64,000 nt of DNA from Candidatus Zhuqueibacterota bacterium. Its GTDB lineage: Bacteria; Zhuqueibacterota; Zhuqueibacteria; Thermofontimicrobiales; Thermofontimicrobiaceae. Below the pieces are notes generated by a model that ran no database searches, was not told the DNA's origin, and worked only from the letters and a program-made list of their open reading frames with translations. Of the stretch, positions 29,909-53,583 are shown piece by piece. The stretch's first letter is position 1. Each line of letters starts with the position of its first letter. The stretch lies in the NCBI GenBank assembly GCA_049322915.1, contig JBMOPW010000014.1, positions 765,527-829,526 on the forward strand. The letters run 5' to 3'. The translations under genes and the position numbers were made by a program.

Positions 29909-32896
29909 TCACTTCACCAGAATCATTTTCTGCATCTCTGAAAAATCATTGACTTCGATTCGGTAAATATAAACGCCGGAGGAGAGCTCGCTCGCATCGA
30001 ATACTACGGAATGGTAACCGGCGTCTTTCGCCCCTTCAAAAATTGTGTCCATTTTTTGTCCGTTCACATTGTAGAGCGATATTTTCACGAGACCCGCCTC
30101 TTTCAGATCGTACTGAATGGTGGTCGACGGATTGAACGGATTGGGGTAGTTCTGATGCAGCCGATACTCGGTCGGTATTTCGTTCCTCGCTTCCAGGGTG
30201 ATGGCTGTGTACGAATACCCGATTTCGATATCGCTGTTATCGGTGGACCGCACAATGGCATTGCCAAATTGAATCTCGGTGTCTTCGCCCACAATGGCGA
30301 ATTCGAGTTTGGCAATGACACCGGTTCCCAACATCACGCCGGGATTGCCCAGAGCAGCGCCGTCAATACTCAGGCTGCTGACCTGGCTGTTCGTCATGAA
30401 GAAATCTGTTTCCTTCCAGATGCTGCCCCTCTCGACGGATTGCAGGGCCAGACCTGCGCCAAAATTGACAGGGATGCTCATACCCTTAATCGCTCCGGAA
30501 TTTTCTGCTAATTGTACTTCAGCAATGAGCGTGGTGGTTTGTTTTGTAAGTGACATATTGAGCGAAATCGGTGCCATCTTTTCGGACGATTGCTTCTTCG
30601 TCAGCCCCTTCCTGCCACCCATGTTTTCATAGTTCATGGCAAAGATCATCAGGTCTTCGAAATCAATGATATTATCGGGAGTGGGGCGTCCATCCGTAAA
30701 ATGGTTCAGCGTGGGACCCACATCGCACAGATTGTTCCAGTGGATGAACCCATCGCTCGTGAAATATGCGGCAGCGAGTATCGCAATATCAGCGGCATCC
30801 ACATCGCCGTCCGGGTCGATATCGCCCAACCAGTACGAAAGCGACGAGTCCAGCACAGCCGCGCTGTAATGAAAGGCTAGGTCTTGGACGAAAATAGCGC
30901 AATAATAGAAATCTCTCAGTGGCGGTGTGTAGTCGAGGCTGGTGACGAATCCCTCGAAAATCTTTGTCCAGCCATTGGCCAATGCTTCGGCAGGGGTGGT
31001 TGGCAAATCAGGCGTCTGACCGTTGTATTCCGGGTAGCCGCCAAAGCCAATCACCCAGACCTGAATATAAAATGCATCGAGATCCGGATTGGTCCAATCC
31101 AAATGGAAGCCATTGGTGGAATCGTCGGCAGCGCCAAAATCCAGACCGGTCACCGGCTCGATGGGCGTGCCATCCCATCGATAGGGTCCAAATCGCAGCG
31201 TGCCGTTGGCAACGTCATCGCCGTTATAGCCTTTCACAAAGACATAATAATCAGTGCCCGCCGTCGGAATGCCAAGCTGCAACAGGCCCTGGCTCCATTT
31301 TGTCTCCTGACCGGTCCAGTTGTACGAATCGCTATTGACAAGCGCGTAGCGATAGTATTCCAGTGTGCCTTCGCCAAATCCACCCACAGCGGTCAGTGTG
31401 AGCGTTGTGCTGGCGTTGTCTCCGCTTCGGACGCAGGTGAGATTCAACGTGGATGGCGGAACCGATAATGTATGTTTGGAGGAAACCGGACTCCAGTCCG
31501 ATTGATTGTACGCCGGCGTCGAATTGGGATCGTTCACACCATCCGAGACGCGGTATATGAATTCGTAAATATGATTGGGCGTCAGGCCGGTGCACTCATG
31601 CACGGAATCATCCTTTGCCCGCGACCGGTTGAATCTGCCGTCCGTGGTGCATTCGAAGTGATAATATTCTTCGCCCTGGGTAGCGTCTTCAACCGACGCT
31701 GCATTCACATGCATGGAGGTTGTGGTGACATTGTTGATGTAAATTGTCAGGTCGCCCTGGGGAATTGTAATATCCTTTTTGAATGTCCATTTCCAGAAAT
31801 TTAAATCCGGTTTGAGCGCTTCGATTGATTGGCCGGATTTAGTACTTAATTTATTCAACGCGTCGTTGCTGAATTCATGGTACCCATCGTAATTGCCGGC
31901 GTCATCGTAGGCGCGCCAATAGATGGTGTGCAACGCGGTCTGTTCATCGAGCTTGTCGAAACCGGGAATTAACCAGCCATCATTGTTGTACTGCGTGCTG
32001 TTAATGTTGCTTGCGATAGTTTTCCAACTGTCTAAATCGATTTTATATTCCACCTTGTCCAGGTTGTAATTGTCGTCGAATCCGAAATTGGAAAACTTGG
32101 GCACGTTCCGATACCAGACTTCCTGGACTTCGTTAATGGTTTCCATGGTAGGCCGACCAGTGTCGACCACGATTTTCCCATGGCCGATCGAATCGACCGA
32201 GATTGCATGATTAACCACATCTCTGAATTTCACCGAGCTCAGCAGGAAATTATTCCCGATTGTGGAAACCAGGTTGTCCGGCACCGGCATATCGGTTGTA
32301 GCTGCAATGGTGAATAAAATCCCGTCGCCGGTCTTGCCATCAGTGACGCCCAGAATGGAACAGTTGACAGTGTAGTCGCCGCCATCTTCCAGCAGTTCCC
32401 AGTGGGTGGGATCGCTTGTGCTGCTCAGAAAAGCGCCTTCCGTGAAAACGATGGAGGAAAACGCGCTGTCATTGAGTGAAATTTTCACCTCGTAGCCGCG
32501 CATGCCGGGATAGACATTCGCAACGCGCACTGTGTATGTGAATGATTGATTGCCGCGCAGCAGCGTGTCCGCCGGGGTCACCCAAATTATAATTGGCTCA
32601 GTTGTAAAATTGCCAACCTGGCCATAACCGCTGCCGGCCAACATGGTTATTGGCGAGGAGGCGGCTAAAACAGGAAAGTCATTTCCACTTACGGACGGCG
32701 CTGATGGATCGCCCAGTGTATTGCGCCAGCTATCGCCAGTTATAAATCTTGAACCAGACATTTTTACAGTATTAAATAAATCGACTGCATACGCATCCGA
32801 AGCAAATACCGCTTCATCGCCGGATTCAGCCAGCGCAGTGGATGTCGATAATAATCCGATCACGAAAACGCATAGTAAAATTTTCCAGCTTTTCAT
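29909..32896 (-). CDS. Secreted cohesin/dockerin-like cassette protein with T9SS-type CTD (headless paralog, 995 aa)
   Basis: Signal peptide; cohesin-like domain; GDIDPDGDVDAADIAILAAAY...DNIIDFEDLMIFAMNY; second cohesin-like domain; LHQNYPNPFNPST...GVYIY...KMILVK. Confidence 0.8.
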   Translation of the reverse strand: MKSWKILLCVFVIGLLSTSTALAESGDEAVFASDAYAVDLFNTVKMSGSRFITGDSWRNTLGDPSAPSVSGNDFPVLAASSPITMLAGSGYGQVGNFTTEPIIIWVTPADTLLRGNQSFTYTVRVANVYPGMRGYEVKISLNDSAFSSIVFTEGAFLSSTSDPTHWELLEDGGDYTVNCSILGVTDGKTGDGILFTIAATTDMPVPDNLVSTIGNNFLLSSVKFRDVVNHAISVDSIGHGKIVVDTGRPTMETINEVQEVWYRNVPKFSNFGFDDNYNLDKVEYKIDLDSWKTIASNINSTQYNNDGWLIPGFDKLDEQTALHTIYWRAYDDAGNYDGYHEFSNDALNKLSTKSGQSIEALKPDLNFWKWTFKKDITIPQGDLTIYINNVTTTSMHVNAASVEDATQGEEYYHFECTTDGRFNRSRAKDDSVHECTGLTPNHIYEFIYRVSDGVNDPNSTPAYNQSDWSPVSSKHTLSVPPSTLNLTCVRSGDNASTTLTLTAVGGFGEGTLEYYRYALVNSDSYNWTGQETKWSQGLLQLGIPTAGTDYYVFVKGYNGDDVANGTLRFGPYRWDGTPIEPVTGLDFGAADDSTNGFHLDWTNPDLDAFYIQVWVIGFGGYPEYNGQTPDLPTTPAEALANGWTKIFEGFVTSLDYTPPLRDFYYCAIFVQDLAFHYSAAVLDSSLSYWLGDIDPDGDVDAADIAILAAAYFTSDGFIHWNNLCDVGPTLNHFTDGRPTPDNIIDFEDLMIFAMNYENMGGRKGLTKKQSSEKMAPISLNMSLTKQTTTLIAEVQLAENSGAIKGMSIPVNFGAGLALQSVERGSIWKETDFFMTNSQVSSLSIDGAALGNPGVMLGTGVIAKLEFAIVGEDTEIQFGNAIVRSTDNSDIEIGYSYTAITLEARNEIPTEYRLHQNYPNPFNPSTTIQYDLKEAGLVKISLYNVNGQKMDTIFEGAKDAGYHSVVFDASELSSGVYIYRIEVNDFSEMQKMILVK

Positions 32897-33002
32897 GCCT
32901 TGCTCCTTTTAAATCTATGACGATTTTTAATATTGAGCACACCCGGCGCTTATTATAATGCCGGGTCGCATTATAATTTTTCCAATAGAAAATTGCGCCC
33001 TG

Positions 33003-36000
33003 TTATTTCACGAGCATCATTTTCTTCATCTCTGTGAAGTCATTCACTTCAATTTTGTAGAAGTAAACGCCGGAAGGCAATTGATCCGCCTGAAGTTGAT
33101 AGGTGTAATAACCGGCCTGTTGTTCTCCCTCGAACAGTGTTTTAATGGCCTGACCATTCACATTGTACAATGTCAGTTTCACCAGTCCGCGCTCTTTCAG
33201 CCCGTACCGAATGGAGGTTGCTGGATTGAACGGATTGGGGTAGTTCTGGCACAATTGATATTCGGATGGCGCTGCGTTTTCATCCGGCACAGAAGATGTG
33301 ATGTATTCGAAGGTTACATCAATATCCGTATTGGCGGCTGACCGTACACAAGCCCGGGTCAACTCGTAATCAATACTGTCGCTTAGAATATCCATCACCG
33401 CAGTTCCGATGGTACCATTGCCCTGAATCACCGCGTCGTGGCCAAGCGCAGCGCCGGTGAAAATGACCTGGCCATTTTTTTCCACCGGTTCGAAGATATA
33501 ATGATCCGTCCAGAGATCGCCTTTTTCAAAGCTGGCAACGTGCAGCCCTTTCAATTCAAGGGTGAAGCAGAGCCCCTTCACGGCTGCCGGATTGTTCTCC
33601 AAATCCAGTCTCGCGTGAAATTGATTGGCCTCGAACCAGGCGCTGAGTTTCACGACGACCGGATCGGTCAGGCTCGGCGGCTCCGGCGTTGGGAAATCGT
33701 AATTCGTATTATCATAATTCATGGAAAAAATCATGACATCTTCAAAATCGATGTTTTGGTCCGGCAGCGGTCGGCTCAGCCTGGTGTGCTTTACCGTTGG
33801 TCCCACGTCGCACACCGGGTTCCAGTTGGCATCACCGGATTGTGAACCGAGCGCATTTCGGAGGATGTCGACATCGCCCATATCCACGTCGCCGTCCGGC
33901 GTTTCATCCACATCCCCCAGCCAGTACGACAGGGACGAATCGCAAATCGCTGAGCTATAGTGGCCGGCCACGTCTCTCACAAAAATGGCGCAGTAATAAA
34001 AATCGCGTTCGTCCGGGATGAATTCAAATTCAGAATCGACGCCGTCGTAGACATTGATCCAGCCGCCATTATCGGCTGCGGTCGTGTTTGCCGGCATGGT
34101 GGGGACGAATCCGGTGTATTGCGGATAGCCGCCATAGGCTTTCACCCACACTTCGACGCCGCCAATTTCCGGGCCGGGATTTTCCCAATTCATATTAATA
34201 ATGTTGGCAGAGTCGATGCCGGCGCCATAGGTCAGATCAGCGATGGGCGTAATGGGCGTGCCGTTCCATTGATAGGGGCCCATAATCAGGGTGCCATTGC
34301 CCACATGCGCTGCGTTGTAGCCTTTGATGTGTAGATAATAATTGATGTCCGCCTGGCTTGCGCCGCACGTGAGCGTGCTGTCCTGCCAGATGGCTTCTGT
34401 ATCCGTCCAGGTGTGGGCATTGGATGTGTCCCACACAAATCGGTAATATTCCACTTTTCCCTGGCCATATCCGCCCACGGCAGTGAACGTGAACGCGGCG
34501 GTGTTCACAACACCGCTTTTATCGCAAGTGATGTTGGCGTAGGTTGGCGCCACAGAAAGCGTGTATGTGGAAAATGTTTCGCTCCACGCTGTCTCGTTGC
34601 AGGCTGGCGTGGCATTCGGGTCGTTCACGCCATCGGAAACCCGATACCGGAATTGGTATTGTCTGTTCGGCGTCAGGTTGGAGCAGGTCATCTCCCGGTT
34701 TGCCAGGATTCGCGCCTGATCATAGCTTTCATCGGTGACACAATCGAATTCATAATATTCATCGCCCTGGAATGCATCCTCGACCGCGGCGCCGGTCACT
34801 TTCATGCCGATGGAGGTGATTTCCGAGAAGGAGACGGTGAGGTTGCCGGCCGGCGCTGAAACGTCCTTTTTGAATCGCCACACCCAGTCCGCGTCGCCGG
34901 ATTGATAATCCAGATCATCGACCGCGCGCCAGTAAACCGTGTGGGGCGCGATGTTTTCGGACAATTCGGAGAAGTTCGGCGTCACCCAATTGCTGACCCG
35001 GTAGACGCTGTCGGCAATGGCGTCAGCGAGGATAGTCCACGCTCCGTCATTCAATTTATATTCAATTTTTTGCAGGTTCAAATTATCCCGGAAGACCAGG
35101 CTGCTGAACACCGGCGCAGAACGACGCCAGGTGTTTTGCGATTCAGTGACCGGCTGCATGGTTGGCGCGGCTGTATCGATGATGATTTTCGCGCCGCTGA
35201 TGATGCTGCCCGGAATGGGATTGTTGTTCACATCGCGCAGATCAACGTCCGGGAATTGCAGATTTTCTTCGGCCGGAAAAACAAGGCCGCCGGGAACGGT
35301 TTCAGCCGTGGTGACGGTGACCGTGAAAAGTGTGCCGGAACCGGCCTTGCCCTCGGTGGGTCCCAGGATGGCGCAGTTCACGCGGTACTGCCCGTTGTCC
35401 CCTGTTGCCTGCCAGAAAGTCAAATCGCCGGTGCTGCTCAAAAATGCGCCTTCTGCGAATATGGGATTTGTAAAATGCGCCGGGTCGAACTGAACATAAA
35501 TATCAAATCCGCGCATGGCTTCCACATTTCCAACATTCACGTTGAAGACAAGCTGCTGGCCGCCTTTGGCCACGAGCGAATCCGGCAGGGTATAGACCGG
35601 CACGTCCTGGCTTTCGAACGAGCCCATGTCCGGTGTGCCAATCCTGGCGAAACCGCGTTGATCGGTCGCCGGGGCGCCATCGGCCGTGCCGGAGTTGATG
35701 GCCGCGCTGCCGAACAACAGTGCGTGGGTTTTGCCCATTCCGCCATTGTCGGCAAGATCTTCGAGCAGAGGATCGGTGTCGTTAAAATTGCCGTCGCCCA
35801 CATCGGACAAGCTGGCGTCGCGGCAAATGGAATAACTTCGAACCAGGTTGAATGCTCCGTCGCCGCTCGTGGCGAAATTATCCGCCGCGCCGTTGTCCAG
35901 AATGCAGTTTTTCAGGGTGAGATTCACCACGCCGGCCTCGAAGCTGGTGTCCGTGGCCTCGGCAAAAATGCCTTTTCCCACGCCGCCGGCGGAATTGTCA

Positions 36001-36785
36001 GCAATGGTCACATTGGTGAACATGGCGGACAGCTTCCCGCTTTCCTGTTCGGCCGATGACGAACTCATGGCATGCAGCGATACCCCGCCGCCTTTGCCGG
36101 AAAAATTGCCGGCTGCGTTGCCGGAAATCGTGCAGTTGGTCACAGCGAGATTTTTCGGGTCTTTGCTCAATTGCATGAAAAGTCCGCCGCCATGGCTGCT
36201 GTTGATGAGTATGGAATTGCCGGCGATGGTGCTGTTTTCTATGGTCAAATGCCCATCGCGGCAAAAAATTCCGGCGCCGTCGTACTGGGACGTGTTCTCG
36301 CGAATGTCGCATCCCGCAATGGTCATCGATCCTGTTTTGCTGTACACGCCGCCTCCGCGCACGCCGCTATTCTTCCTGATGATGCAATTGCGCAGGGTCA
36401 GGTCCGCCTGGCTGTAAATGCCGGCGCCGTTCTCATTGGTGTTTCCGTGCCGGATCGTCAGATTTTTGAGGTGGATCTGGTAGCCTGCGCTCAACAGAAA
36501 TACGCGGCGCCCAACGTCTGCGCCGGTGTCCGACGCCTGAATGACAGAGGTGAGCGGATTTTCGCCGCGGATGGTCACATGTTTTTCGACCGAAATGTTA
36601 TAATCTGTAATGGTTCCGAACACGATGAGAGTATCGCCGTCGGTTGCGCTGAGCAGGGCATCGGTCACTGTGGCGTAACTATGGCCACTGCCGATCTCCA
36701 GAATTGCCCCGTGCAAAGGCGGCGATGAAAGCGCGAGTAAAAATAGGATATTTACAATAACTGCAAAGAGATGAAAGCGTTTCAT
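33003..36785 (-). CDS. Secreted beta-helix (choice-of-anchor Q) + cohesin/dockerin-like cassette + T9SS-type CTD
   Basis: AGGAGG RBS precedes MKRFHLF; GAGIY/GGGVY repeats; LADNGG...TDQRG...DMGSFE; shared C-terminal cassette. Confidence 0.8.
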   Translation of the reverse strand: MKRFHLFAVIVNILFLLALSSPPLHGAILEIGSGHSYATVTDALLSATDGDTLIVFGTITDYNISVEKHVTIRGENPLTSVIQASDTGADVGRRVFLLSAGYQIHLKNLTIRHGNTNENGAGIYSQADLTLRNCIIRKNSGVRGGGVYSKTGSMTIAGCDIRENTSQYDGAGIFCRDGHLTIENSTIAGNSILINSSHGGGLFMQLSKDPKNLAVTNCTISGNAAGNFSGKGGGVSLHAMSSSSAEQESGKLSAMFTNVTIADNSAGGVGKGIFAEATDTSFEAGVVNLTLKNCILDNGAADNFATSGDGAFNLVRSYSICRDASLSDVGDGNFNDTDPLLEDLADNGGMGKTHALLFGSAAINSGTADGAPATDQRGFARIGTPDMGSFESQDVPVYTLPDSLVAKGGQQLVFNVNVGNVEAMRGFDIYVQFDPAHFTNPIFAEGAFLSSTGDLTFWQATGDNGQYRVNCAILGPTEGKAGSGTLFTVTVTTAETVPGGLVFPAEENLQFPDVDLRDVNNNPIPGSIISGAKIIIDTAAPTMQPVTESQNTWRRSAPVFSSLVFRDNLNLQKIEYKLNDGAWTILADAIADSVYRVSNWVTPNFSELSENIAPHTVYWRAVDDLDYQSGDADWVWRFKKDVSAPAGNLTVSFSEITSIGMKVTGAAVEDAFQGDEYYEFDCVTDESYDQARILANREMTCSNLTPNRQYQFRYRVSDGVNDPNATPACNETAWSETFSTYTLSVAPTYANITCDKSGVVNTAAFTFTAVGGYGQGKVEYYRFVWDTSNAHTWTDTEAIWQDSTLTCGASQADINYYLHIKGYNAAHVGNGTLIMGPYQWNGTPITPIADLTYGAGIDSANIINMNWENPGPEIGGVEVWVKAYGGYPQYTGFVPTMPANTTAADNGGWINVYDGVDSEFEFIPDERDFYYCAIFVRDVAGHYSSAICDSSLSYWLGDVDETPDGDVDMGDVDILRNALGSQSGDANWNPVCDVGPTVKHTRLSRPLPDQNIDFEDVMIFSMNYDNTNYDFPTPEPPSLTDPVVVKLSAWFEANQFHARLDLENNPAAVKGLCFTLELKGLHVASFEKGDLWTDHYIFEPVEKNGQVIFTGAALGHDAVIQGNGTIGTAVMDILSDSIDYELTRACVRSAANTDIDVTFEYITSSVPDENAAPSEYQLCQNYPNPFNPATSIRYGLKERGLVKLTLYNVNGQAIKTLFEGEQQAGYYTYQLQADQLPSGVYFYKIEVNDFTEMKKMMLVK

Positions 36786-36868
36786 TGGTATCCTCCTGAG
36801 TTGATCTTTGATGATGAATCCCTTTACGCTGAAGCATAATTTCAATTAGGCATGGGAGTTTTCAGGAA

Positions 36869-36896
36869 ATATCGACATTCAGCGGAAAAGAATAAG
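36869..36896 (-). promoter_or_regulatory. Conserved bipartite motif CTTATT-N14-GTCGATAT (putative alternative-sigma promoter)
   Basis: Same boxes and identical 14-nt spacing upstream of three paralogs. Confidence 0.6.
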
Positions 36897-36963
36897 AGCT
36901 AATTTGCAATGTGACCATAATTTATCAGATGTTACTAGTGAGAGAATAATCAGCGCGAACTCC

Positions 36964-37190
36964 GATCGCGATGGATCGGAACGTATGTTCCGGATCAGGG
37001 GAGCGGTTCGGGATAAATATCCCGAACGATCGATTTTCCAGAAAAAAAAAATTGCCCGGGATACATGATTCCGGGCGATCAATTGCGTTTCGGATCCCGA
37101 TCGCGCTGGCTATGTATCCAGCGCGGACAATTCATGGAAACGTATGTTTCCGGGTAATGAAACCGTTCGGGATACATATCCCGAACGATC
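36964..37190. repeat. GATC-footed three-hairpin repeat units (2 copies)
   Basis: Units at 36964-37031 (first hairpin collapsed) and 37099-37190. Confidence 0.85.
37042..37079 (-). terminator. Intrinsic terminator shared among paralogs
   Basis: GCCCGG stem with U-tract; homologous to 44219-44255 and 52146-52175. Confidence 0.7.
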
Positions 37191-37209
37191 CGTTACCGTG
37201 ATATTTTCG

Positions 37210-44218: not shown

Positions 44219-44255
44219 AAAAAAAAATCGCCCGGGATACATGATCCCAGGCGAT
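44219..44255 (-). terminator. Intrinsic terminator shared among paralogs
   Basis: ATCGCCCGGGAT...ATCCCAGGCGAT stem with U-tract. Confidence 0.75.
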
Positions 44256-44281
44256 CAAATGGTTTACGTTTTAGGGTTAGG

Positions 44282-47200
44282 TTATTTCATCAGCACCAGC
44301 TTGCGCACATCGCGGAAGTCATTGACCTGAATCCGGTACAGATAGACGCCGGACGGCAAATTACCGGCTTCGAACACGAAGCTGTGATAGCCGGCGTTTT
44401 TGACTTCATCGAGCAGCGTGGCAATGCGCTGACCGTTGATGTTGTACAATGTTATCGTCACCTGTCCGTCCGCCTTCAAATCGTACAGAATGGTTGTGGA
44501 AGGATTGAACGGATTGGGATAGTTCTGATGCAGCTTGTATTCCGTGGGAATCAATCCTTCGGAAAGCAGCGCCACATCGGTGTAGGCGTAGGTCAACTCC
44601 AGGTTAGCATTGCCCTGGGAGCGCGCCACAGCCTCGCCAAACTGAATGGAGCTGTTGCTGCCATTTACGGTGAAAACAATTTCCGCAACCACGCCATTGT
44701 CTTTGAAAATACCTTCATGCTCCAGCGCGGCCGCACTGATGTACAGACAATTGCCTTCCTGGCCGGCGTCGAAGAAATCACCGGAGGTAACCAGGCTGCC
44801 TCGTCGGACCTGCGAGAAGGACAGATCAGCGCCGAAAGTGATGGGGATGTACAATCCCTTGACAACGCCGGCGTTTTCATTCAACTGCACTTGCGCTACA
44901 AACTGAGCGCCAACCCGTTGAATGTTCAGCAACAGCGCAATGGGGCTGCTGGTCACTTTGGCCTTTGATTTATCCGTCTTATCCTTGCTGGTGTTTTCAT
45001 AGTTCATGGCAAAGATCATCAGATCTTCGAAATTGATATCATCGTCTGGAAGCGGACGACTGATTCGACCAAAGTCCAGGGTTGGCCCGACATCGCAGTG
45101 GCCATTCCAGTCGGCGTCGATGGAACTGGTATGATAGGCGCTGGAGAGGATGGCAATATCGGACGCTGTCACTGAGCCATCCGGGGATGCGTTCACATCG
45201 CCCAGCCAGTAGGACAGGGAGGAATCGATGGCCGCGGCGCTGTAATGCTTGGCCATATCTTCGACGAACAATGCGTAATAATAGAAATCGCGATTGGCTG
45301 GTGCATATTTTTTGCTGGTGGCCAGCGAATCCAATATTTTTGTCCAGCCATCACCAGACGCTTCGTCCGGCGTTGTTGGGAACGTCGGCACTGCACCGGT
45401 GTATTCCGGATAGCCGCCGAATCCCTTGAACCAGACTTCAATTTTATAGGCGTCGTTTTGGGGATTGGTCCAACTGCATTGCAACGAGTTGCCGGACGTA
45501 CTGAGTTCCAGTTTGGTCACCGGCGAAATGGGCGTGCCATCCCACTGATACGGCCCAATCGTCAATGTACCGTTGGCGACGTCTTCGGCGTTGTAACCTT
45601 GCACATGGAGATAATAATTCTTATTGGCCGTGGGAATACCCATTTTCAAATCGCCGGATGCCCACTCGGACTCCGTGCCTTTGAAGGTATGGGCAATGCT
45701 GTCGTCCAGCGCATAGAGATAATACTGGACAGTGCCAGCGCCAAATCCACCCACTGCGGTGAACGTGAGGGTGGTGGTGCTGATGGTCCCGTGCTTGTCG
45801 CAGGTTACTGTTGATGTTGTTGGAGCCACGGACAGCGTGTATTTGGAATATTCGTTGCTCCACGACGTGGCATTGTAGGCCGGGGTAGCGCCGGGATCAT
45901 TGACGCCGTCGGACCCCTGGTACTTGAATTTGTATTGGGTATTGGCTGCCATTGTAGCGCATTCGTGAATGGAATCGGCCAATGTTCGGGCGCGGTCGTA
46001 CGTGTCATTCGTAGTACAATCGAACTGGTAATACTCCTCGCCCTGGGTGGTGTCAGCCAACGCAGCGCCGACCACCTTCATGGAATAAGCGGCCACATCT
46101 TTGAACGAAATGCTGAGGTCGCCCAGTGGGGCTGTTTCATCTTTGTAGAAACAGAAATCCCAGGTTTTATCGTAGCCGCCCAGATTGCCGGCATCGTCGC
46201 AGGCGCGCAAATAGAACCAGTGCAAGGCTTTACGTTCGGCCAGTTCGGCGTAGCCAGGCAACGGCGCATTGCTAGCAGAGGCAGTTTTACCCTTGATTCC
46301 ACCCATAATGGTCGTCCAGGCGTCATCATTCAATTTGTAGCTGAGCGAATCCAGTTCATAATTATCCGCGACGCGAAAAACCTGAAGTACGGGCTGACTG
46401 CGATACCACACGCTGTCAGCTTCGGCCAGGGAATCCATAGTCGGCGGCGCCGTATCGATGATGATTTTTGACCCGGCGCTGCTGTCGCACGGAATCGCGA
46501 TATTGTTCACATCGCGAAGCAGAACATGAGACAGCATCAGATTGTCACTCGATGGATTGACAAGACTATCGGTCACTGCATCCGCCGTTGTCAGCATCAT
46601 GGTGAACAACGTGCCGTCGCCGGTGACGCCGTCTGTGACGCCTAAAATAGCGCAATCAACGGTGTAACGGCCATTGGCCCCGGAGGCGTCCCATTGCGTG
46701 GTCTTACCGGTGCTGCTGAGGAACGTCCCTTCGGTAAACTGAGGCGAAGTAAAATGATCGTCATTGAAATCGACCTGAACGCTGAAGCCGCGCATCGCCG
46801 GCAGCACATTGGCAATGCTCACGGTGTAGGTCACTTGCTGACCGCCTCGGAGCAATGTGTCAGAAGGCGTTGTTGTAATCAGAATCTGTTTTGTGGTGAA
46901 CGTGGAATCAGCCCCATAACCTGTGCCGGCGCCGTTGGTGGCGTAGGCGCGAACATAATACGTGATCCCGTGGGCCAATCCTGTGATTGAACTGGAGAAT
47001 GAGCCCGTGCCGTCGCCGTTGCTGGTGTGGCTGCTATCCACTGTGGGATTTGCAGTCAAACCCCAGCACACGCCGCGGACTGTCACCGAATCGCCGCCAT
47101 CGGCAGTCACATTGCCGCCGCCAACTGCGGAAATCACGGTGATGGAATCGATGGCCGCTGTGACAACGGTGGGCACTGTGATGCCAACGCCTTCGATTTC

Positions 47201-50200
47201 GAAGTTGAAATCGCTTTCATCGCTATCATTGTTGCGAACATAAACGTAGGTGGAACGGGTGCCGCCGTCCGATGGATTGAACTGAATTGTGAATGAAAGG
47301 GAATCTCCCGGGTTTATATAGAAATTCTCCGGCTGGGCCGTGACTTCAAAATCATACCCTTGGGGTCCTTTGAGAAGAATGAGGGCCCTGCCGGATGGCG
47401 AATTCATTGTAAACCCTGCCAATTCCATGTTTGAATCTCGGTCACCCAAATAAAGCCGTTCGTTTCCAGTATTAAAAATCCTGAACGTTCGATTGATGGT
47501 TCCGCCATCCACGGCAGCAGAGCCGAAACTGGTGGAGTCTGTGGCCGAAGGTGTGGTGTCGCCGTTTGCAATGGAGATGTAATTTCCGCGAACATCGATC
47601 TCAGGAGTAACGCCCGTGCCCCGGATGGCGAAAGTATAGGGGCTGTTTGAGAAGTCGTCGCTATTGATGTCGATGGACGCAGAACGAATTCCCACTGCGG
47701 ATGGATTGAATGCCACCGTGAACGTCGTGGAGTCGCCAGCCGCCACAGAATCCGATGGCTGCGTTGTCACCGTGAAATCACTGGCATGATCGCCGCCAAT
47801 GTTCACGTTGTCTCTGTCGATGAAATTCACCCGGGAAACAGCGTCCGCATTCTTGACAATCGGATTGAAATGGAGCGTGGCCGTTCCGGTATTAAGGATT
47901 GTGAAAATGTGTGTGGAAGAATCGCTGACAACGCTCACACTGTCGAAATCGGTGAAATCAAGGAATGACGGCACTGTATCGCCGTTGGCGATGGTGGTAT
48001 AATTCCCGCGCACTTCGATTGTCGGCGTTACTCCTGCGCCCAGAATGGCAAAGGTGTAGGGACTCTCATCGCCGTCGTTGCTGTAAAGACTGACGGTTGC
48101 GCGACGCTCGCCGCTGTCCGATGGATTGAACGTCACGACAAACGAAGCGGAATCGCCAACAGCGATGGGGCTTGTCGGTTGCGTCTTCACAGTGAAATCA
48201 GCCGCATTGTCGCCGCTGATTGTGACAAGGTCGATTGGTCTGGAATTGCGAAGAGAATTATCCGTGTGAGTTATTATCTGGCCGAGCACCAGAGACGCTG
48301 TGCCGGTGTTGAAAATTTTGAAGGTGCGATCCATGGATCCCAAAAGCACGCCGACGCTGTCAAAATCGGTGTGATCGGCTTGGGATGGAGTTTCGTCGCC
48401 ATTTGCTATGGAAACGTAATTGCCCTGGATGTCGATTTCCGGGACAGCGCCAAAACCCTGGATGGAGAAGTTGTAGGGACTTTCGTCCGAATCATCGCTG
48501 TAAATGGAGATGGTGGCGCTGCGCACACCGTTTCCCGACGGATCGAATTTTACCGTGAACGTTGTGGAATCGCCCGGGCTGATTTCGAGAGATGGCGCCT
48601 GGGTCACAGTAAAATCTGCTGAGTTTGTACCGCCAATGACCACGGGATTTTCCAGTTCAATCGTCACCGGTTTTTCATTTCTGGCGTCAGATTGAGAGTT
48701 GCCCAGGTAAAGTGTTTTATTGCCGGTATTGTAGATGCTGTACGTCCGTTCGAGGTCGCCATTGCTTACAGCGACGCTGTCGAAATCTGTATGGTCGGTC
48801 AGGGACGGGCTGGCGTCGCCGTCTACAATAGAAACATAATTACCGTGCACATCGATTTCCGCGGCAAGGCCAATACCCTGGATTGCGAACGTATAGGGGC
48901 TTTCATCGCTGTCGTTGTTGGGTATCGACACAGTCGCTGACCTGGTCCCGTTTGAAGATGGGTCGAATTGAACCATGAATGAAGCGGAATCGCCTGGTTC
49001 AAGATAGGCGACAGAGGGCTGAGTGGTCACTTCAAAATCAACCGAATGATCTCCGCTTATTGTGACGATTTCGCTTGGTCCGGTTTGATTTAATCTTGAT
49101 CTGTACATATCCATTTCAGCCTTATCCGGCTGCGATAAAAAAAGTATATCATTTCCAGTGTTAAAAATTTTGAAGGTGCTATTGATTGTTCCCCCATCGA
49201 CATTGGCGGATCCGAAACTGGTGGAATCATCCGCAGAGGAGATAGTGTCACCGTCCGCAATGGAAAGGTAATTTCCGCGGACGTCGATTTCCGGGACAGC
49301 TACAGGATCTGTGCCAAATTTGTATTCATAAGCGCCCATATCGATGGTGCCTGCACTGCCGTTCGTTTTATTCAGCTTGCGATCAAATCCGGCGCCGCGA
49401 ATGTCGGTGGTCTCGGAGTTATACGCATCGTACCCGGCATCGGCGCAGGGAGAAACGTTGTAGATTCTATAATCTCCACCAGCCGCGTCCACAATTAGAG
49501 GATTGCTGGTAATATTATTGTTCGTCGCTGTGAAGGTTGTGCCTATATTAAAAACATCACGGGTTGCGTTTCCATAGCAGGAATAATTCAACGTAACAGT
49601 CCCGGCAGGAGCCATTCCGTTTTCCAGGTAGAACTCGTTTCCTGCTATCCCAGTATTACCGTAAATAATGCAGTTAAAGTATGTGCCTGATGAGCCGAAC
49701 CAGTTTCTAACGCCTCCCCCGCCTCCATTGGCGGCGTTATTTGTAATTGTCACATTTATAAAAATCGGCGAAACTTCGGTGTGGTTGTAAATGCCGCCGC
49801 CGCCTGAATTAGAATAATTGCCGGCAATCAAGACGTTGGTAAAAACAGGATCCGCATTGTTTTGATTGATTATTCCGCCGCCATAGGATTCTGCGTAATT
49901 GTTCAGAACCATGGTATTAGTAAGGGAAGGATTACTGGACAGGTTGTACATTCCTCCGGCCTGGCTATATGATTTATTCCACGAAATGTTTGAATTGGTA
50001 ATAACAGGAGAGGATGTGTCGTTAAACATTCCTGCGGCAGTATAGTAAGCATAGTTATAAATAATGTTCACAGAATTAAGTGAGGGGGAATTTAATTGAT
50101 TATACATACCCGCTCCCGTTATGTGCAATAAACCGGGATCTGAGGCATTTCCGCCCCTAACGGTGAATCCGTCAAGAACCGCGGTTGTGTCGAGCCCCAA

Positions 50201-51088
50201 TCCGCTGGGATGATAGAACACATGAAAGCAGTTCTCGGAATTGTTGCTGAAGGACAATGTTTGTCCCGACCCGGTCACCACATCGTCCTGGTTGAAATCG
50301 CCGCTGAGAATGGTTTCATTGGCTTCGCCCATGCCATAATTGGCGCGTTCGCTGACAGCAGATTCCGTGCCTGCAAAACCGCCGTAAATAGCAACGCCGT
50401 TTTTCATACGAAAATGGAAATAGCGTGACGTGTTAGTCAAATCGTATGCTGAGGTGGGGAAATAGGTGCCGGCTTTCACCCAGATCTTGTCGCCGCTTGT
50501 GGCCAAATCCAGCGCAGCCTGCAGTGTTTGTTTGGCATTATCCCAGCTTAAACCATCGCCGCTGTCATCGGCTTTGGTTGAATCCACGTAATAGGTGGGC
50601 GACTCCCCGGTTCCCTTGATTGTAAACGTGTACGGATTCTCATTAAAATCATTATTGGGGATGGAAACCGTGGCCTGCCGCGCGCCTGACGCACCCGGGG
50701 TGAATTTGATGGTAAACGACGCCGGCATCCCCATACTAACAAATTGGGAGGAGGGTTGGCTGGTAACCTCGAAATCGCCGGGGTTCGTCCCTGTAATCGA
50801 AACATAAGGGGTGCCCTGCAGTATTAAAACCGATTCAGGACCTCCCAAATTGCTGATTGAGAAACTCACCGATGAATCGCCGCCGACGGCCGAACTCCCA
50901 AAATCGAACTCCCCGGTCCCGCTGGGTATGGACGTGCCGTTTTGTTGGACATCAATTTCCGGTGGCATAATAATATTTTCCGGCGGCATAGGATCCTGAG
51001 CAAAAAGCCCCACCGCCAGGACGCAAATGAACCAGAGCGTCAAGGCGCTGATCCAGAATGTGCGATTACCTGTTAATCTTGTTTTCAT
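44282..51088 (-). CDS. Secreted ~2270-aa protein: Ig + beta-helix + 5 further choice-of-anchor D Ig domains + FN3 + cohesin/dockerin-like cassette + T9SS-type CTD
   Basis: AGGGAG RBS precedes MKTRLTG; six PEIDV-type domains; GGMYN repeats; shared cassette. Confidence 0.85.
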   Translation of the reverse strand: MKTRLTGNRTFWISALTLWFICVLAVGLFAQDPMPPENIIMPPEIDVQQNGTSIPSGTGEFDFGSSAVGGDSSVSFSISNLGGPESVLILQGTPYVSITGTNPGDFEVTSQPSSQFVSMGMPASFTIKFTPGASGARQATVSIPNNDFNENPYTFTIKGTGESPTYYVDSTKADDSGDGLSWDNAKQTLQAALDLATSGDKIWVKAGTYFPTSAYDLTNTSRYFHFRMKNGVAIYGGFAGTESAVSERANYGMGEANETILSGDFNQDDVVTGSGQTLSFSNNSENCFHVFYHPSGLGLDTTAVLDGFTVRGGNASDPGLLHITGAGMYNQLNSPSLNSVNIIYNYAYYTAAGMFNDTSSPVITNSNISWNKSYSQAGGMYNLSSNPSLTNTMVLNNYAESYGGGIINQNNADPVFTNVLIAGNYSNSGGGGIYNHTEVSPIFINVTITNNAANGGGGGVRNWFGSSGTYFNCIIYGNTGIAGNEFYLENGMAPAGTVTLNYSCYGNATRDVFNIGTTFTATNNNITSNPLIVDAAGGDYRIYNVSPCADAGYDAYNSETTDIRGAGFDRKLNKTNGSAGTIDMGAYEYKFGTDPVAVPEIDVRGNYLSIADGDTISSADDSTSFGSANVDGGTINSTFKIFNTGNDILFLSQPDKAEMDMYRSRLNQTGPSEIVTISGDHSVDFEVTTQPSVAYLEPGDSASFMVQFDPSSNGTRSATVSIPNNDSDESPYTFAIQGIGLAAEIDVHGNYVSIVDGDASPSLTDHTDFDSVAVSNGDLERTYSIYNTGNKTLYLGNSQSDARNEKPVTIELENPVVIGGTNSADFTVTQAPSLEISPGDSTTFTVKFDPSGNGVRSATISIYSDDSDESPYNFSIQGFGAVPEIDIQGNYVSIANGDETPSQADHTDFDSVGVLLGSMDRTFKIFNTGTASLVLGQIITHTDNSLRNSRPIDLVTISGDNAADFTVKTQPTSPIAVGDSASFVVTFNPSDSGERRATVSLYSNDGDESPYTFAILGAGVTPTIEVRGNYTTIANGDTVPSFLDFTDFDSVSVVSDSSTHIFTILNTGTATLHFNPIVKNADAVSRVNFIDRDNVNIGGDHASDFTVTTQPSDSVAAGDSTTFTVAFNPSAVGIRSASIDINSDDFSNSPYTFAIRGTGVTPEIDVRGNYISIANGDTTPSATDSTSFGSAAVDGGTINRTFRIFNTGNERLYLGDRDSNMELAGFTMNSPSGRALILLKGPQGYDFEVTAQPENFYINPGDSLSFTIQFNPSDGGTRSTYVYVRNNDSDESDFNFEIEGVGITVPTVVTAAIDSITVISAVGGGNVTADGGDSVTVRGVCWGLTANPTVDSSHTSNGDGTGSFSSSITGLAHGITYYVRAYATNGAGTGYGADSTFTTKQILITTTPSDTLLRGGQQVTYTVSIANVLPAMRGFSVQVDFNDDHFTSPQFTEGTFLSSTGKTTQWDASGANGRYTVDCAILGVTDGVTGDGTLFTMMLTTADAVTDSLVNPSSDNLMLSHVLLRDVNNIAIPCDSSAGSKIIIDTAPPTMDSLAEADSVWYRSQPVLQVFRVADNYELDSLSYKLNDDAWTTIMGGIKGKTASASNAPLPGYAELAERKALHWFYLRACDDAGNLGGYDKTWDFCFYKDETAPLGDLSISFKDVAAYSMKVVGAALADTTQGEEYYQFDCTTNDTYDRARTLADSIHECATMAANTQYKFKYQGSDGVNDPGATPAYNATSWSNEYSKYTLSVAPTTSTVTCDKHGTISTTTLTFTAVGGFGAGTVQYYLYALDDSIAHTFKGTESEWASGDLKMGIPTANKNYYLHVQGYNAEDVANGTLTIGPYQWDGTPISPVTKLELSTSGNSLQCSWTNPQNDAYKIEVWFKGFGGYPEYTGAVPTFPTTPDEASGDGWTKILDSLATSKKYAPANRDFYYYALFVEDMAKHYSAAAIDSSLSYWLGDVNASPDGSVTASDIAILSSAYHTSSIDADWNGHCDVGPTLDFGRISRPLPDDDINFEDLMIFAMNYENTSKDKTDKSKAKVTSSPIALLLNIQRVGAQFVAQVQLNENAGVVKGLYIPITFGADLSFSQVRRGSLVTSGDFFDAGQEGNCLYISAAALEHEGIFKDNGVVAEIVFTVNGSNSSIQFGEAVARSQGNANLELTYAYTDVALLSEGLIPTEYKLHQNYPNPFNPSTTILYDLKADGQVTITLYNINGQRIATLLDEVKNAGYHSFVFEAGNLPSGVYLYRIQVNDFRDVRKLVLMK

Positions 51089-51507
51089 ATAAAACTCCCT
51101 TATGATGTTAAACATATCCTGAAAATTTGTGTCACATACCGGTCTGAAAGCCGGAATGACTAAATGAGTTATTATCCTTTGAGAACAACTTCACTTAAGG
51201 TGGGGACAGCGCACATCTGATCAGCATAAAAGGTTTTTTCTTTGTCATTTGATTCCGTGTTTCCATAAGAAATCCTCCAGTTGGTAAATGTTTAAAAAGC
51301 GCAGCAATGGTGCGGCGCGCCTTGTTTCAGTGACATAGGTCGACGGATGGTTTCCTGTCTCATGAAATCGCCCCGTCAATTCGAAAAAATAATTCAGACA
51401 CAACCTGCGTGCAGTACCCTGGCGTGTTCATGGGCTGCGCCATTCTATCGGTAAAAAGAGTATTCCGGGAAGAAAATAAACTCGATGCGCAACAAAAGTT
51501 AGATGAA

Positions 51508-51535
51508 GTATCGACAGGATTCCTGGGGAAATGAG
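51508..51535 (-). promoter_or_regulatory. Conserved bipartite motif CTCATT-N14-GTCGATAC
   Basis: Third copy, about 420 bp upstream of the ATG at 51088. Confidence 0.55.
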
Positions 51536-51632
51536 GGAAAAGTGAATAAGTAACGAAAATATCATTTTCTTGAATGGATTGAAACGATGGGTCATCGAAA
51601 AAGGAGAGGTATTCCGATCGCACCGTATCTCC

Positions 51633-52138
51633 GATCGCGCCGGATATGTATCCGGCGCGGGCAATGGATCGGAACGTATGTTCCCGATCAGTGGAGCGGT
51701 TCGGGATGAATATCCCGAACGATCCGCGTGGGCGACGAAACCGATCGCGCCGGATATTCATCCGGCGCGGGCAATGGATCGGAACGTATGTTCCCGATCA
51801 AGGGGAACCGTTCGGGATGAATATCCCGAACGATCCGGAAGGACAAACCGTTTGCCCGGAGCGCAGTCCCTTTATGGACTGCGTGCGACCCCATGATCGC
51901 GCCGGATATTCATCCAGCGCGGGCAATGGATCGGAACGTATGTTCCCGATCAAGGGGAACCGTTCGGGATAAACATCCCGAACGATCCGGAAGGACAAAC
52001 CGTTTGCCCGGAGCGCAGTCCCATTATGGACTGCGTGCGACCCCATGAACGCGCTGGATATTTATCCGGCTAGGGCAATGGATCGGAACATACGTTCCGG
52101 ATCAGGGGAGCGGTTCGGGATGAATATCACGAACGATC
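51633..52138. repeat. Array of four ~92-bp three-hairpin units
   Basis: Units start at 51633, 51743, 51895 and 52047; the last three have a 152-bp period. Confidence 0.95.
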
Positions 52139-52145
52139 CGGAATG

Positions 52146-52175: not shown

Positions 52176-52209
52176 AGCATGATATTTAAACGTTGGAGGA
52201 GAAGCGATA

Positions 52210-53583
52210 TTATTTCAATAAAGTCAGCGTGCGGATTTCTGAAAACTCGCCGGCTTCGATTTTATAGAAGTACACGCCGGAAGGGAGTTGATCGGCCATC
52301 AACGTGCACTGGTGCTGCCCGGCCGATTGTTCTCCGGCAAAAATGGTGGCGACGAGTTGACCGCAGAGATTGAACAGGGATAACCGGACAAAGCCGGCGG
52401 CAGGCAGGTGATACGGAATTATGGTGGAAGCATTGAACGGATTGGGGTAATTCTGAAGCAGTTGAAAAGTCCCGGCAGTCACAGTCACTTCCACGGCCGC
52501 GCTGTAAGAGAAGGCGCCGTCCGTATCGATTTGCCTGAGCCGATATTGAACCTGGCCGGTGGGCGCGTTTCTGTCGGTGAACGAATAGGTCAGTGTGGCG
52601 CTGGAATTGCCGTGGCCGGCCACAAATCCGATGCGCGCCCAATCCTGCTGGCCATCTGCGCCAGCCAGTCGCTCGATTTCGAATCCATAATTGTTGGATT
52701 CGGACTGGGTTTCCCAGCTCAACGCTATGTGATCCTGGCGAAGGTCGACCCAAAACCCGGATAGTTCCACCGGCAGCGTGATGGTGCTTGTTTCGAAGCT
52801 TCGTGTTTCCGTGTACTTTGTCCCGCGATAGGAGGAGGCATAGGCGCGGAAAAAATAGGTGGCGCCTGGCTGCAAACCTGTGGCGTTCACGGTGAAGTCG
52901 CCGGTGTTGCCGACCACTATTTTTTTCCCGGTGTAGCTGGAAACTGTGGGAATGCCTGTTTGGCTCCATACCACGCCGCGCTCGATGATGGCCGAACCGC
53001 CGTCATCCACAACAGTCCCGCCGAGATATGCCGAATAGGCGGTGATATTCTGAACTGTCGGATCCGTGATGACCGGGAGCGCCGCACAATTAACAATGAC
53101 CGTGCCTGGCTGCGTTGCGACATCCGGAATGATCTCTCCGTCCACGGCATAGTAGAATTCCTGGTCCACCACAGTCAAATTTTCGACGCCATCGCGGACA
53201 TTGCGAAATGTCAGATCCAGAATGGCGCCGGAATCGTCGATGGACAGACCCGCGCCCAGCACGATGCATTCCACACGGATGACGTCTGCGGACTCCTGCA
53301 CCACGCGCCACCAGTAGCTGCTGAAGCCGGAAACCAGCGCGCCCTTTTCAGCCGAAATGAACTGGCACAGTTCAGGGTTGTATTTCAAATACACTTTGAA
53401 TCCCCGGAAACCGTCGCTATTCTGTTCGACGTTGAGGTCGATGTTGAAATTGCCGGTCTTGTTCACGTGAAGCGTGTCAGGCAGAAAACAGGTTTGAAAA
53501 CTGTAGGCGTTTAAAGAGACGAGCAGGATGGCAAAAAAAATGATGATGCGGATCGGTCGAGTCTTTTTGGAATTCTTCTTCAT
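52210..53583 (-). CDS. Secreted cohesin-like + FN3 + T9SS-type CTD protein
   Basis: FRGFKVYLKYNP...ILDLTF cohesin-like domain, DGGSAIIERGVVWS FN3, LPVELSGF, QNYPNPFN. Confidence 0.8.
   Translation of the reverse strand: MKKNSKKTRPIRIIIFFAILLVSLNAYSFQTCFLPDTLHVNKTGNFNIDLNVEQNSDGFRGFKVYLKYNPELCQFISAEKGALVSGFSSYWWRVVQESADVIRVECIVLGAGLSIDDSGAILDLTFRNVRDGVENLTVVDQEFYYAVDGEIIPDVATQPGTVIVNCAALPVITDPTVQNITAYSAYLGGTVVDDGGSAIIERGVVWSQTGIPTVSSYTGKKIVVGNTGDFTVNATGLQPGATYFFRAYASSYRGTKYTETRSFETSTITLPVELSGFWVDLRQDHIALSWETQSESNNYGFEIERLAGADGQQDWARIGFVAGHGNSSATLTYSFTDRNAPTGQVQYRLRQIDTDGAFSYSAAVEVTVTAGTFQLLQNYPNPFNASTIIPYHLPAAGFVRLSLFNLCGQLVATIFAGEQSAGQHQCTLMADQLPSGVYFYKIEAGEFSEIRTLTLLK

Follow-up and report, generated by a model that had tools for sequence, protein, structure and literature searches.

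The 64,000-nucleotide stretch of contig JBMOPW010000014.1 from Candidatus Zhuqueibacterota bacterium analysed here (the window) contains a tandem array of five genes for secreted proteins. Four of these proteins end in a common cassette that includes two cohesin domains, a fibronectin type III (FN3) domain, a divergent dockerin and a C-terminal domain (CTD) of the kind recognised by type IX secretion systems (T9SS). We estimate a probability of roughly 0.5 that the array encodes non-catalytic, adhesin-like proteins that are exported by the T9SS, in which the dockerin is engaged by the following cohesin to form a rigid base and the distal cohesins serve as free sockets. The cassette resembles a cohesin-dockerin-type assembly system and is not a cellulosome, being without enzymes or carbohydrate-binding modules (CBMs) and carrying its dockerin on a cohesin-bearing chain. 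What is new here is that the predicted FN3-dockerin-cohesin-CTD tail is a fixed unit found in more than 1000 protein clusters from several phyla.

The array comprises five intact open reading frames (ORFs) at 29909-53631, all co-oriented on the minus strand according to the ORF listing and translations, which encode four large proteins (P0001 to P0004) and a small one (P0005). In transcription order, the large proteins decrease in size from P0004 through P0003 and P0002 to P0001, as an earlier note on this DNA had described. That note had also assigned a signal peptide and a CTD to each of the five co-oriented genes, and both assignments are confirmed. Specifically, inspection of the translations by eye reveals a hydrophobic, signal-peptide-like N terminus in every protein, and all five match Por_Secre_tail (PF18962; 32.4-39.4 bits, Pfam cut-off 27) and TIGR04183 (34.4-44.3 bits, cut-off 23). 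All five array proteins are predicted to be T9SS type A cargo. The corresponding machinery, whose presence the earlier note had proposed to check, is encoded elsewhere in the genome (6.25 Mb searched, 96% complete, with the window on a 1.09-Mb contig): SprA (893 bits), two PorU proteins (869 and 818 bits) and PorV (258 bits) all exceed curated cut-offs. The GldM family gave no match in the genome, and its control was likewise silent. An N[YF]PNPF motif near the C terminus is present in 154 ORFs of this genome.

The shared cassette spans about 880 amino acids (aa), and its copies in P0001 to P0004 align from end to end over 880-906 columns at 43-68% identity. The order of its parts is cohesin 1, three spacers (B, C and D), an FN3 domain (E), the dockerin, cohesin 2 and the CTD. 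The presence of one common cassette in four proteins had been recognised previously, and the positions then given for the calcium-loop module in the four genes agree with ours to within about 15 bases. Pfam recognises nothing in spacers B to E of the four proteins except a single fn3 match (E-value 0.009) on the C domain of P0002, and a profile of the whole cassette yielded weak matches among PDB sequences (best E-value 0.066).

Because library models are nearly blind on the cassette, the cohesins were assigned from matches of their structure models. Against a Pfam Cohesin (PF00963) cut-off of 24.1 bits, the second cohesin scores 29.4 bits in P0003 and 23.7 bits in P0004 and gives no match in P0001 or P0002, and none of the four first cohesins matches. 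AlphaFold2 (AF2) models of the P0003 copies only were built for the tail from domain E to the CTD (423 aa, 39-row alignment; pLDDT 89.4, pTM 0.72) and for cohesin 1 with spacer B (251 aa, 16 rows; pLDDT 91.6, pTM 0.82). In a Foldseek search, the matches of the cohesin 1 model are nearly all cohesins, and single-cohesin chains align at TMt 0.67-0.77 (2xdh 0.77, 1g1k 0.76). A VIA-align search of the tail model against 48,161 chains returned cohesins at all of the first 12 ranks for cohesin 2 (model residues 199-339), including 2xdh (Z 15.6, root-mean-square deviation (rmsd) 3.9, 129 residues aligned), 5nrk (Z 15.2) and 1ohz (Z 14.9), each over 127-129 residues. Type I and archaeal cohesins reached Z 14.4-15.6, whereas type II cohesins reached 12.4-12.6 and type III 11.8. 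For both models, Foldseek ranks the cohesin-FN3 pair of C. perfringens GH84C (2w1n) first. Alignment of cohesin 1 to cohesin 2 by hhalign gave a probability of 39.6% (E-value 3e-4), and our own cohesin-2 hidden Markov model (HMM) matches cohesin 1 at iE 2.5e-6 to 0.08. When searched against PDB sequences, the cohesin-1 profile found nothing meaningful, and the cohesin-2 profile found 4uyp_A (E-value 0.017) and 2xdh (E-value 0.3). In these models, both domains have the cohesin fold, a nine-stranded jelly-roll beta-sandwich that is superposable on solved cohesins, as the earlier note had supposed from the letters of the sequence.

The calcium-loop module between domain E and cohesin 2 had been read as a dockerin, and it is best described as a putative divergent dockerin homologue that falls outside Dockerin_1 by the Pfam cut-off. 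We make this call because a profile of the module matches solved dockerins while Dockerin_1 (PF00404, cut-off 22.9 bits) stays below its cut-off, with 14.3-15.3 bits (E-values 0.023-0.049) on three of the four modules and no match on the fourth. Among 22 aligned family members, Dockerin_1 matches four at an E-value of 1 or lower. A profile made from these 22 sequences gave 22 matches among PDB chains, 19 of them dockerin-bearing, and the six matches at E-values of 1e-3 or lower are all dockerins. The best values are 1.7e-5, 1.9e-5 and 1.5e-4, and type II X-dockerins lead (4wi0_B 1.7e-5, 4u3s_B 1.9e-5, 5k39_B 4.7e-4, 2b59_B 6.2e-4). In the P0003 tail model, a helix follows each calcium loop (H130-139 and H175-184). 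The first loop has the canonical form DxDxDGxxDxxD in P0001 and a two-residue insert in the other three copies. The second loop, which lines up with loop 2 of known dockerins, retains D1, D5 and D12; its position 3 is G, and a 12-residue insert (DVGPT...RPxPD) interrupts it. The helix after this loop (FEDL..F) is nearly invariant across phyla in the 22-member alignment. Domain E is FN3-like (VIA Z about 11) and runs without a linker into the first calcium loop through a conserved YWLGD junction, so that a beta-sandwich is fused to the dockerin N terminus as in an X-dockerin dyad.

The regions ahead of the cassette differ among the four proteins. Family matches support the heads that had been proposed for them, namely an immunoglobulin (Ig) and beta-helix head in P0004, a propeller and beta-helix in P0003, a beta-helix in P0002 and none in P0001, in which about 70 residues precede the cassette. 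Atlas neighbours of the P0002 head belong to Beta_helix, Chlam_PMP and DUF1565 clusters, and the head regions of P0003 and P0002 have no match among PDB sequences at an E-value of 0.1 or lower. Scans of the five array proteins with Pfam and NCBIfam-type libraries found no glycoside hydrolase, other catalytic or CBM family, which agrees with the absence of an obvious glycoside hydrolase motif remarked on before. Across the wider family, 33 representatives of at least 900 aa carry heads matching Beta_helix or NosD (15), FG-GAP (3), other binding-type or repeat families (5) or no head family (10), and none of the 33 has a catalytic family above cut-off.

Within the phylum, the dockerin profile matches 16 of 167 genomes. 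Matches above 100 bits are confined to this genome (5 copies) and one genome of the same genus (4 copies), and the other 14 genomes have weak matches of 31-52 bits. The genome is KSB1-like, as the named relatives of its RpoB protein belong to candidate division KSB1 (73-84% identity); a placement in Cloacimonadota, which the Cloacimonetes label of some cassette homologues would suggest, is rejected on this ground. A search for synteny in related genomes, as the earlier note had recommended, showed that the same-genus genome keeps the array, with cassette genes at 75-80% identity and a P0005 counterpart at 63%. The heads differ, however, and the counterpart of the head-less, 995-aa P0001 has 1886 aa. 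The size gradient, and with it the proposed display of heads at graded heights, is therefore not conserved.

Beyond the phylum, a HMMER scan of 1.84 billion representatives with the tail recovered 1705 proteins at an E-value of 1e-3 or lower and 1068 at 1e-10 or lower. Domain order was examined in the 142 new representatives listed, all of which contain the dockerin. Among the 124 that are full-length, with at least 200 aa after the dockerin, a cohesin-2 match follows the dockerin in every case, domain E lies just before it in 119, 220-259 aa remain after it in 118, and an additional cohesin is present upstream in 83. One metagenomic protein of 2234 aa (P0128) has an FG-GAP head and four tandem FN3-dockerin-cohesin units, each placed after Big_9 or cadherin-like domains. 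These comparisons indicate that the predicted FN3-dockerin-cohesin triad beside the CTD is an old, fixed unit. Of 402 candidate stretches in species-representative genomes, 341 were confirmed, and the record titles include Krumholzibacteriota, Eisenbacteria, Zixibacteria, Gemmatimonadota, Cloacimonadota, Fibrobacteraceae, Ignavibacteria and several Bacteroidota.

For neighbourhood statistics, 75 loci were kept. Their ORFs show the architectures coh1-E-doc-coh2 (52), coh1-B-E-doc-coh2 (27) and cohesin-2-type variants of these (11), and 25 loci are tandem arrays with more than one dockerin-bearing gene. Complete small ORFs with a cohesin alone occur in 24 of the 48 loci that have at least 2.5 kb of downstream sequence. 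These solo-cohesin ORFs number 33, of which 31 are on the same strand as the cassette gene, 18 end in WGxIKxxY[RK] and five end in a CTD; no NCBIfam model matched the WGxIKxxY[RK] motif. In Krumholzibacteriota and Eisenbacteria-type genomes, solo cohesins of about 187 aa lie about 0.9 kb downstream of cassette genes, often with a gene for a cohesin and CTD of about 300 aa in between. Three of four such 187-aa proteins scanned reach or nearly reach the Pfam Cohesin cut-off. In the article listings and text passages searched, nothing describes the Coh-FN3-Doc-Coh-CTD cassette, where it occurs or the solo-cohesin genes beside it.

Genome-wide, Pfam gives 20 Cohesin and 10 Dockerin_1 matches in 20 ORFs. 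All 20 ORFs have a T9SS-type tail, with the N[YF]PNPF motif in 16 and a similar C-terminal end in four. Eight of the 10 canonical dockerins have a cohesin no more than about 100 residues away in the same ORF, on one side or the other, and six genome proteins resemble P0005 in having an N-terminal cohesin and a T9SS-type tail. In six proteins (loci L080-L083, L085 and L088), a CarboxypepD_reg beta-sandwich directly precedes Dockerin_1, forming a predicted X-module-like dyad that parallels the FN3-dockerin pair in the window. Given these six proteins and the eight cohesin neighbours, both the fusion of a beta-sandwich to a dockerin and the adjacency of dockerin and cohesin are common in this genome. 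In some of the CarboxypepD_reg-Dockerin_1 proteins, the head matches an enzyme family (GDSL lipase, Exo_endo_phos or C39-like). A second island (C14:289902-306312), about 470 kb from the window, consists of six consecutive same-strand genes with cohesin and/or Dockerin_1 matches and T9SS-type tails; FG-GAP heads occur among them, and in three of the proteins the cohesin is N-terminal.

We infer the following scheme of binding and surface retention, set beside the observed folds, export signals, secretion machinery, conservation and gene neighbourhood. The array proteins would be exported by Sec and then by the T9SS and, by analogy with type A CTD cargo in Bacteroidota, would probably be retained at the outer surface once PorU has cleaved off the CTD. 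Four of them would display different heads (beta-helix, propeller or Ig) on one shared stalk. The FN3 domain would hold the calcium-loop dockerin as an X-module holds a type II dockerin, and the dockerin would be engaged by the next cohesin, more likely within the same chain and less likely through a swap between neighbouring chains. In both cases, the engaged triad, stabilised by calcium, would form a rigid base close to the membrane. This would leave the distal cohesin and the lone cohesin of P0005 as free sockets, through which the paralogues, or other T9SS cargo with a dockerin, could be tied together in a surface coat.

Engagement of the dockerin by its neighbour is suggested because the triad is intact in 124 of 124 representatives with constant spacing, is repeated as a block, and yields a tail model with pTM 0.72. 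By our reading, such a value for a 423-aa chain of four domains would need about three of them to be rigidly placed. Likewise, the nearly invariant second dockerin helix seems more in keeping with a structural interface than with a specificity site of variable sequence. Free sockets are supported by the upstream cohesins of 83 of the 124 representatives, the solo-cohesin genes at 24 of 48 loci, and the P0005 counterpart kept beside the array in the same-genus genome. Complex prediction for cohesin 1 and cohesin 2 with the dockerin as partner gave 0.18 and 0.10 against a mark of 0.32 and, having been run without controls, carries no weight either way.

Several points weigh against an engaged triad with free sockets. 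No tool result shows a cohesin-dockerin contact, and the pTM of the tail is an indirect indication that does not identify which domains touch. Where cellulosomal scaffoldins carry both modules, binding between their cohesin and dockerin is unusual. Burial of the dockerin in cis would leave the conserved extra cohesins short of evident partners, and by Pfam only two dockerin proteins in the genome are without an adjacent cohesin. Dockerin_1 is below cut-off on all four modules, and the 12-residue insert in the second loop makes calcium binding uncertain. Furthermore, surface anchoring through anionic lipopolysaccharide is, to our knowledge, restricted to Bacteroidota and is extrapolated here.

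The arrangement favoured by the earlier note, in which a free dockerin docks in trans onto either cohesin of another copy or paralogue to build a branched surface lattice polymer, is in our judgement unlikely but deserves serious consideration. The two cohesins are real by their modelled fold and the dockerin by profile match, the make-up of two cohesins and one dockerin is conserved in the three architectures counted above, and one third of the loci (25 of 75) are tandem arrays. The extra upstream cohesins and the solo-cohesin genes would likewise provide partners for contacts in trans. There is also precedent, as a study of R. bromii Amy4 reports that its cohesin binds the dockerin of its own chain and interprets this as multimerisation (PMC4611034), and the best structural match of both cassette cohesins is the non-cellulosomal cohesin 2xdh of Archaeoglobus fulgidus. 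However, binding in trans does not need the strict adjacency of dockerin and cohesin 2, their constant spacing or the repetition of the unit, and the pTM of 0.72 suggests a compact tail. Trans-acting dockerins would normally be expected to vary at recognition positions, whereas the second helix is nearly invariant here, and the size gradient is absent from the same-genus genome.

It is improbable that the cohesin-like and dockerin-like domains no longer pair and instead serve as rigid spacers or as binders of glycans or the outer membrane, leaving function to the heads alone as adhesins or polysaccharide-active beta-helices. Such a loss would be consistent with Pfam scores below cut-off for seven of eight cohesins and all four dockerins, with the inserts in the calcium loops, and with cohesin 2 identities as low as 22% between paralogues. 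Nevertheless, co-occurrence of dockerin and cohesin is near absolute (124 of 124) and solo-cohesin genes recur beside cassette genes, a combination that seems hard to explain without a pairing function. Least probable is a cellulosome-like scaffold whose cohesins recruit dockerin-bearing enzymes of the same genome, which would accommodate the own-genome cohesin or dockerin proteins with heads matching GDSL lipase, Exo_endo_phos, GxGYxYP and C39-like families and the cellulosome-like reading given to Cloacimonadota proteins with cohesin, dockerin and CTD (PMC8542988), but which is at odds with array proteins that have no catalytic or CBM family, with 10 of 10 Dockerin_1 matches on proteins bearing their own T9SS-type tail (the CTD motif or a similar end; FlgD_ig or Por_Secre_tail), with the cohesin within about 100 residues of eight of these 10, and with family-wide heads that are mostly beta-helix, FG-GAP or Ig.

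The closest known counterparts of the cassette are the type II X-dockerin dyads and the adaptor or anchoring scaffoldins of clostridial cellulosomes (A. cellulolyticus ScaA X-Doc, 4wi0 and 4u3s; C. thermocellum CipA X-DocII, 2b59 and 3kcp), which have the same fusion of a beta-sandwich to the dockerin N terminus, likewise lie on a non-catalytic chain that also carries cohesins, and give the best matches to the dockerin profile. Unlike these clostridial scaffoldins, the cassette belongs to a Gram-negative host and ends in a T9SS CTD where they rely on SLH or sortase anchoring, and its locus is without CBMs or enzyme-borne partners. It also has exactly one dockerin, always followed by a cohesin, and the 12-residue insert in the second calcium loop, and its cohesins match type I better than type II (VIA Z about 15 versus 12.6). 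The order of a cohesin followed by an FN3-type domain is shared with the non-cellulosomal modules of the toxin-complex glycosidase GH84C of C. perfringens (2w1n). Such cohesin-FN3 modules of C. perfringens are found on secreted enzymes of a Gram-positive pathogen, where they pair with dockerins on other enzymes.

The rule that cohesins sit on scaffoldins and dockerins on enzymes, which the earlier note had taken as established, leaves out self-recognising chains known to bear both modules, of which R. bromii Amy4 (PMC4611034) is one. In that account, binding of the Amy4 cohesin to the dockerin of the same chain leads to a proposal of multimerisation, and A. fulgidus is cited for similar pairs. 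The cassette resembles Amy4 and the A. fulgidus cohesin 2xdh, a top or near-top structural match of both cassette cohesins, in placing a cohesin and a dockerin on one chain outside cellulose degradation. Amy4 comes from a Gram-positive bacterium and is an amylase with a single cohesin, whereas the cassette has two cohesins, fixed spacing, T9SS export and no enzyme. A further parallel comes from the Cloacimonadota 'Ca. Stygibacter' (PMC8542988), for which cohesins and dockerins are reported on signal-peptide proteins of a candidate phylum of the FCB group, along with a scaffoldin-like protein with a CTD. In that system, by contrast, it is enzymes that carry the dockerins, and the multi-cohesin scaffoldin, of 3755 aa, has CBMs; in the text consulted, the Coh-FN3-Doc-Coh-CTD cassette does not appear and tandem paralogues are not mentioned. 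Dockerin proteins of anaerobic methanotrophic (ANME) archaea are interpreted as adhesion modules in another study (PMC13452462).

Table 1. Array genes, their domains and solo-cohesin genes at other loci, with coordinates in the window unless a locus is named.
Feature	Coordinates	Strand	Content or basis
P0005	52210-53631	-	473 aa; 457 aa from likely start ATG at 53583; signal peptide, N-terminal cohesin, two FN3-like domains, T9SS CTD
P0005 cohesin (about residues 55-170)	53122-53469	-	Pfam Cohesin E 1.1e-3, 19.6 bits, under cut-off; own coh1/coh2 HMMs iE 3.5e-5 / 1.4e-4
P0005 T9SS type A CTD	52213-52449	-	Por_Secre_tail, TIGR04183
P0004	44282-51115	-	2277 aa; head and cassette
P0004 head	46901-51115	-	one Ig, beta-helix, six choice-of-anchor-D Ig, FN3-like; choice_anch_D 296 bits in 6 stretches; HYDIN_VesB Ig
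P0004 cohesin 1	46460-46900	-	cassette alignment, own HMMs; fold modelled on P0003 copy
P0004 spacers B, C, D (beta-sandwich or FN3-like)	45545-46459	-	cassette alignment
P0004 FN3 domain E, X-module-like, fused to dockerin	45224-45544	-	alignment and P0003 structure match
P0004 putative divergent dockerin	44990-45223	-	family alignment, profile versus PDB
P0004 cohesin 2	44549-44989	-	Pfam Cohesin 23.7 bits; own HMM
P0004 CTD	44285-44548	-	Por_Secre_tail, TIGR04183
P0003	37210-43422	-	2070 aa; head and cassette
P0003 head	39838-43422	-	seven BNR_4-like repeats, beta-helix, two Ig, FN3-like; BNR_4 75 bits; choice_anch_D 99 bits
P0003 cohesin 1	39400-39837	-	AF2 pLDDT 91.6; Foldseek cohesins TMt 0.67-0.77
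P0003 spacers B, C, D	38482-39399	-	B modelled as beta-sandwich; Pfam on C and D without family
P0003 FN3 domain E	38152-38481	-	VIA versus FN3 domains Z 10.4-11.4, rmsd 2.1-3.5, 88-101 residues
P0003 putative divergent dockerin	37918-38151	-	profile versus PDB; two helices in model
P0003 cohesin 2	37477-37917	-	Pfam Cohesin 29.4 bits; VIA Z 15.6 to 2xdh, 14.9 to 1ohz
P0003 CTD	37213-37476	-	Por_Secre_tail, TIGR04183
P0002	33003-36845	-	1280 aa; 1260 aa from ATG at 36785 (form on record); beta-helix head and cassette
P0002 head	35619-36785	-	beta-helix with choice-of-anchor-Q; choice_anch_Q 70.2 bits
P0002 cohesin 1	35181-35618	-	alignment, own HMMs
P0002 spacers B, C, D	34266-35180	-	fn3 E 0.009 on C
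P0002 FN3 domain E	33939-34265	-	alignment, own HMMs
P0002 putative divergent dockerin	33705-33938	-	family alignment, profile versus PDB
P0002 cohesin 2, most diverged copy (22% to P0003)	33270-33704	-	own HMMs
P0002 CTD	33006-33269	-	Por_Secre_tail, TIGR04183
P0001	29909-32896	-	995 aa; signal peptide, about 70-aa leader, then cassette alone
P0001 cohesin 1	32168-32608	-	alignment, own HMMs
P0001 spacers B, C, D; ~25-aa insert in B	31175-32167	-	alignment
P0001 FN3 domain E	30848-31174	-	alignment, own HMMs
P0001 putative divergent dockerin, first loop canonical DxDxDGxxDxxD	30620-30847	-	family alignment, profile versus PDB
P0001 cohesin 2	30176-30619	-	alignment, own HMMs
P0001 CTD	29912-30175	-	Por_Secre_tail, TIGR04183
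~187-aa solo cohesins (signal peptide and one cohesin, WGxIKxxY[RK] end)	L013:10148-10735, L015:7310-7870, L018:10161-10721, L026:3677-4237, L032:3305-3865, others		

Additional features were observed between and around the array genes. The intergenic spacers at 36975-37190, 43794-44206 and 51633-52140 contain two, three and four tandem copies, respectively, of a unit of about 150 bp that consists of three palindromic hairpins (for example, TTCGGGATnnnnATCCCGAA). This hairpin pattern occurs 24 times in the 6.25-Mb genome, including seven times within these three spacers, and the unit looks like a REP (repetitive extragenic palindromic) or BIME-type (bacterial interspersed mosaic element) sequence. 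The small ORFs at 43783-44133 and 51360-51761 are probably read-through of this unit. A hairpin with a 13-bp stem and a T run (44226-44256, minus strand) immediately follows the P0004 stop codon, and P0004 and P0003 may therefore be transcribed separately. The last ~300 nucleotides of P0003 (37210-37510) and P0004 (44282-44580), which encode the CTDs, are 91-95% identical, compared to 45-81% for the remaining cassette, which suggests recent gene conversion at these 3' ends. No RNA datasets containing positions 29909-39900 are listed.

Directly downstream of P0001, a minus-strand gene at 28384-29424 encodes a signal peptide, a single EF-hand or dockerin-like loop (DLNGDGYVDY), a stretch rich in Tyr, Arg, Thr and His, and a Lys-rich tail, and its product has no Pfam family. 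The same-genus array has a counterpart with 66% identity on its downstream side, separated from it by one extra ORF of 775 aa. Further away in the window, four peptidase genes in a row on the plus strand (9831-17653; S46, S9 prolyl oligopeptidase, C1-like, and M28 with PDZ) are unrelated to the array. An AAA_21/AAA_15 ATPase gene of an AbiEii-type family (20160-21491, minus strand) is located inside a patch of 40% G+C (20001-22000), compared to about 50% nearby, and this region may be a small defence or mobile insert.

In sum, the domain calls, the CTD, the secretion machinery and the non-catalytic heads of the earlier interpretation stand, and its graded heights are not conserved. Cohesin-dockerin pairing is the textbook glue of Gram-positive cellulosomes, and elsewhere it is represented mostly by scattered "non-cellulosomal" modules of unknown use. 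Here, T9SS cargo in more than 1000 protein clusters, drawn from six or more phyla that are mostly uncultured, has the two modules in a fixed cassette, whose neighbours are conserved and whose heads are mostly non-enzymatic. We tentatively suggest that the cassette and the recurring small single-cohesin genes might represent a previously undescribed, multi-phylum system of the FCB group and Gemmatimonadota that is coupled to the T9SS and that builds, cross-links or anchors an adhesin-like outer-membrane coat by cohesin-dockerin pairing, as an enzyme-free counterpart of the cellulosome. The solo cohesins of about 187 aa, many of which end in WGxIKxxY[RK], could be the membrane-side receptors of such a coat. 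If the pairing is true, it would account for the way in which these bacteria organise or stiffen the proteins on their surface, would offer T9SS research outside Bacteroidota a new principle of cargo retention or assembly, and would provide new orthogonal cohesin-dockerin pairs for protein engineering.

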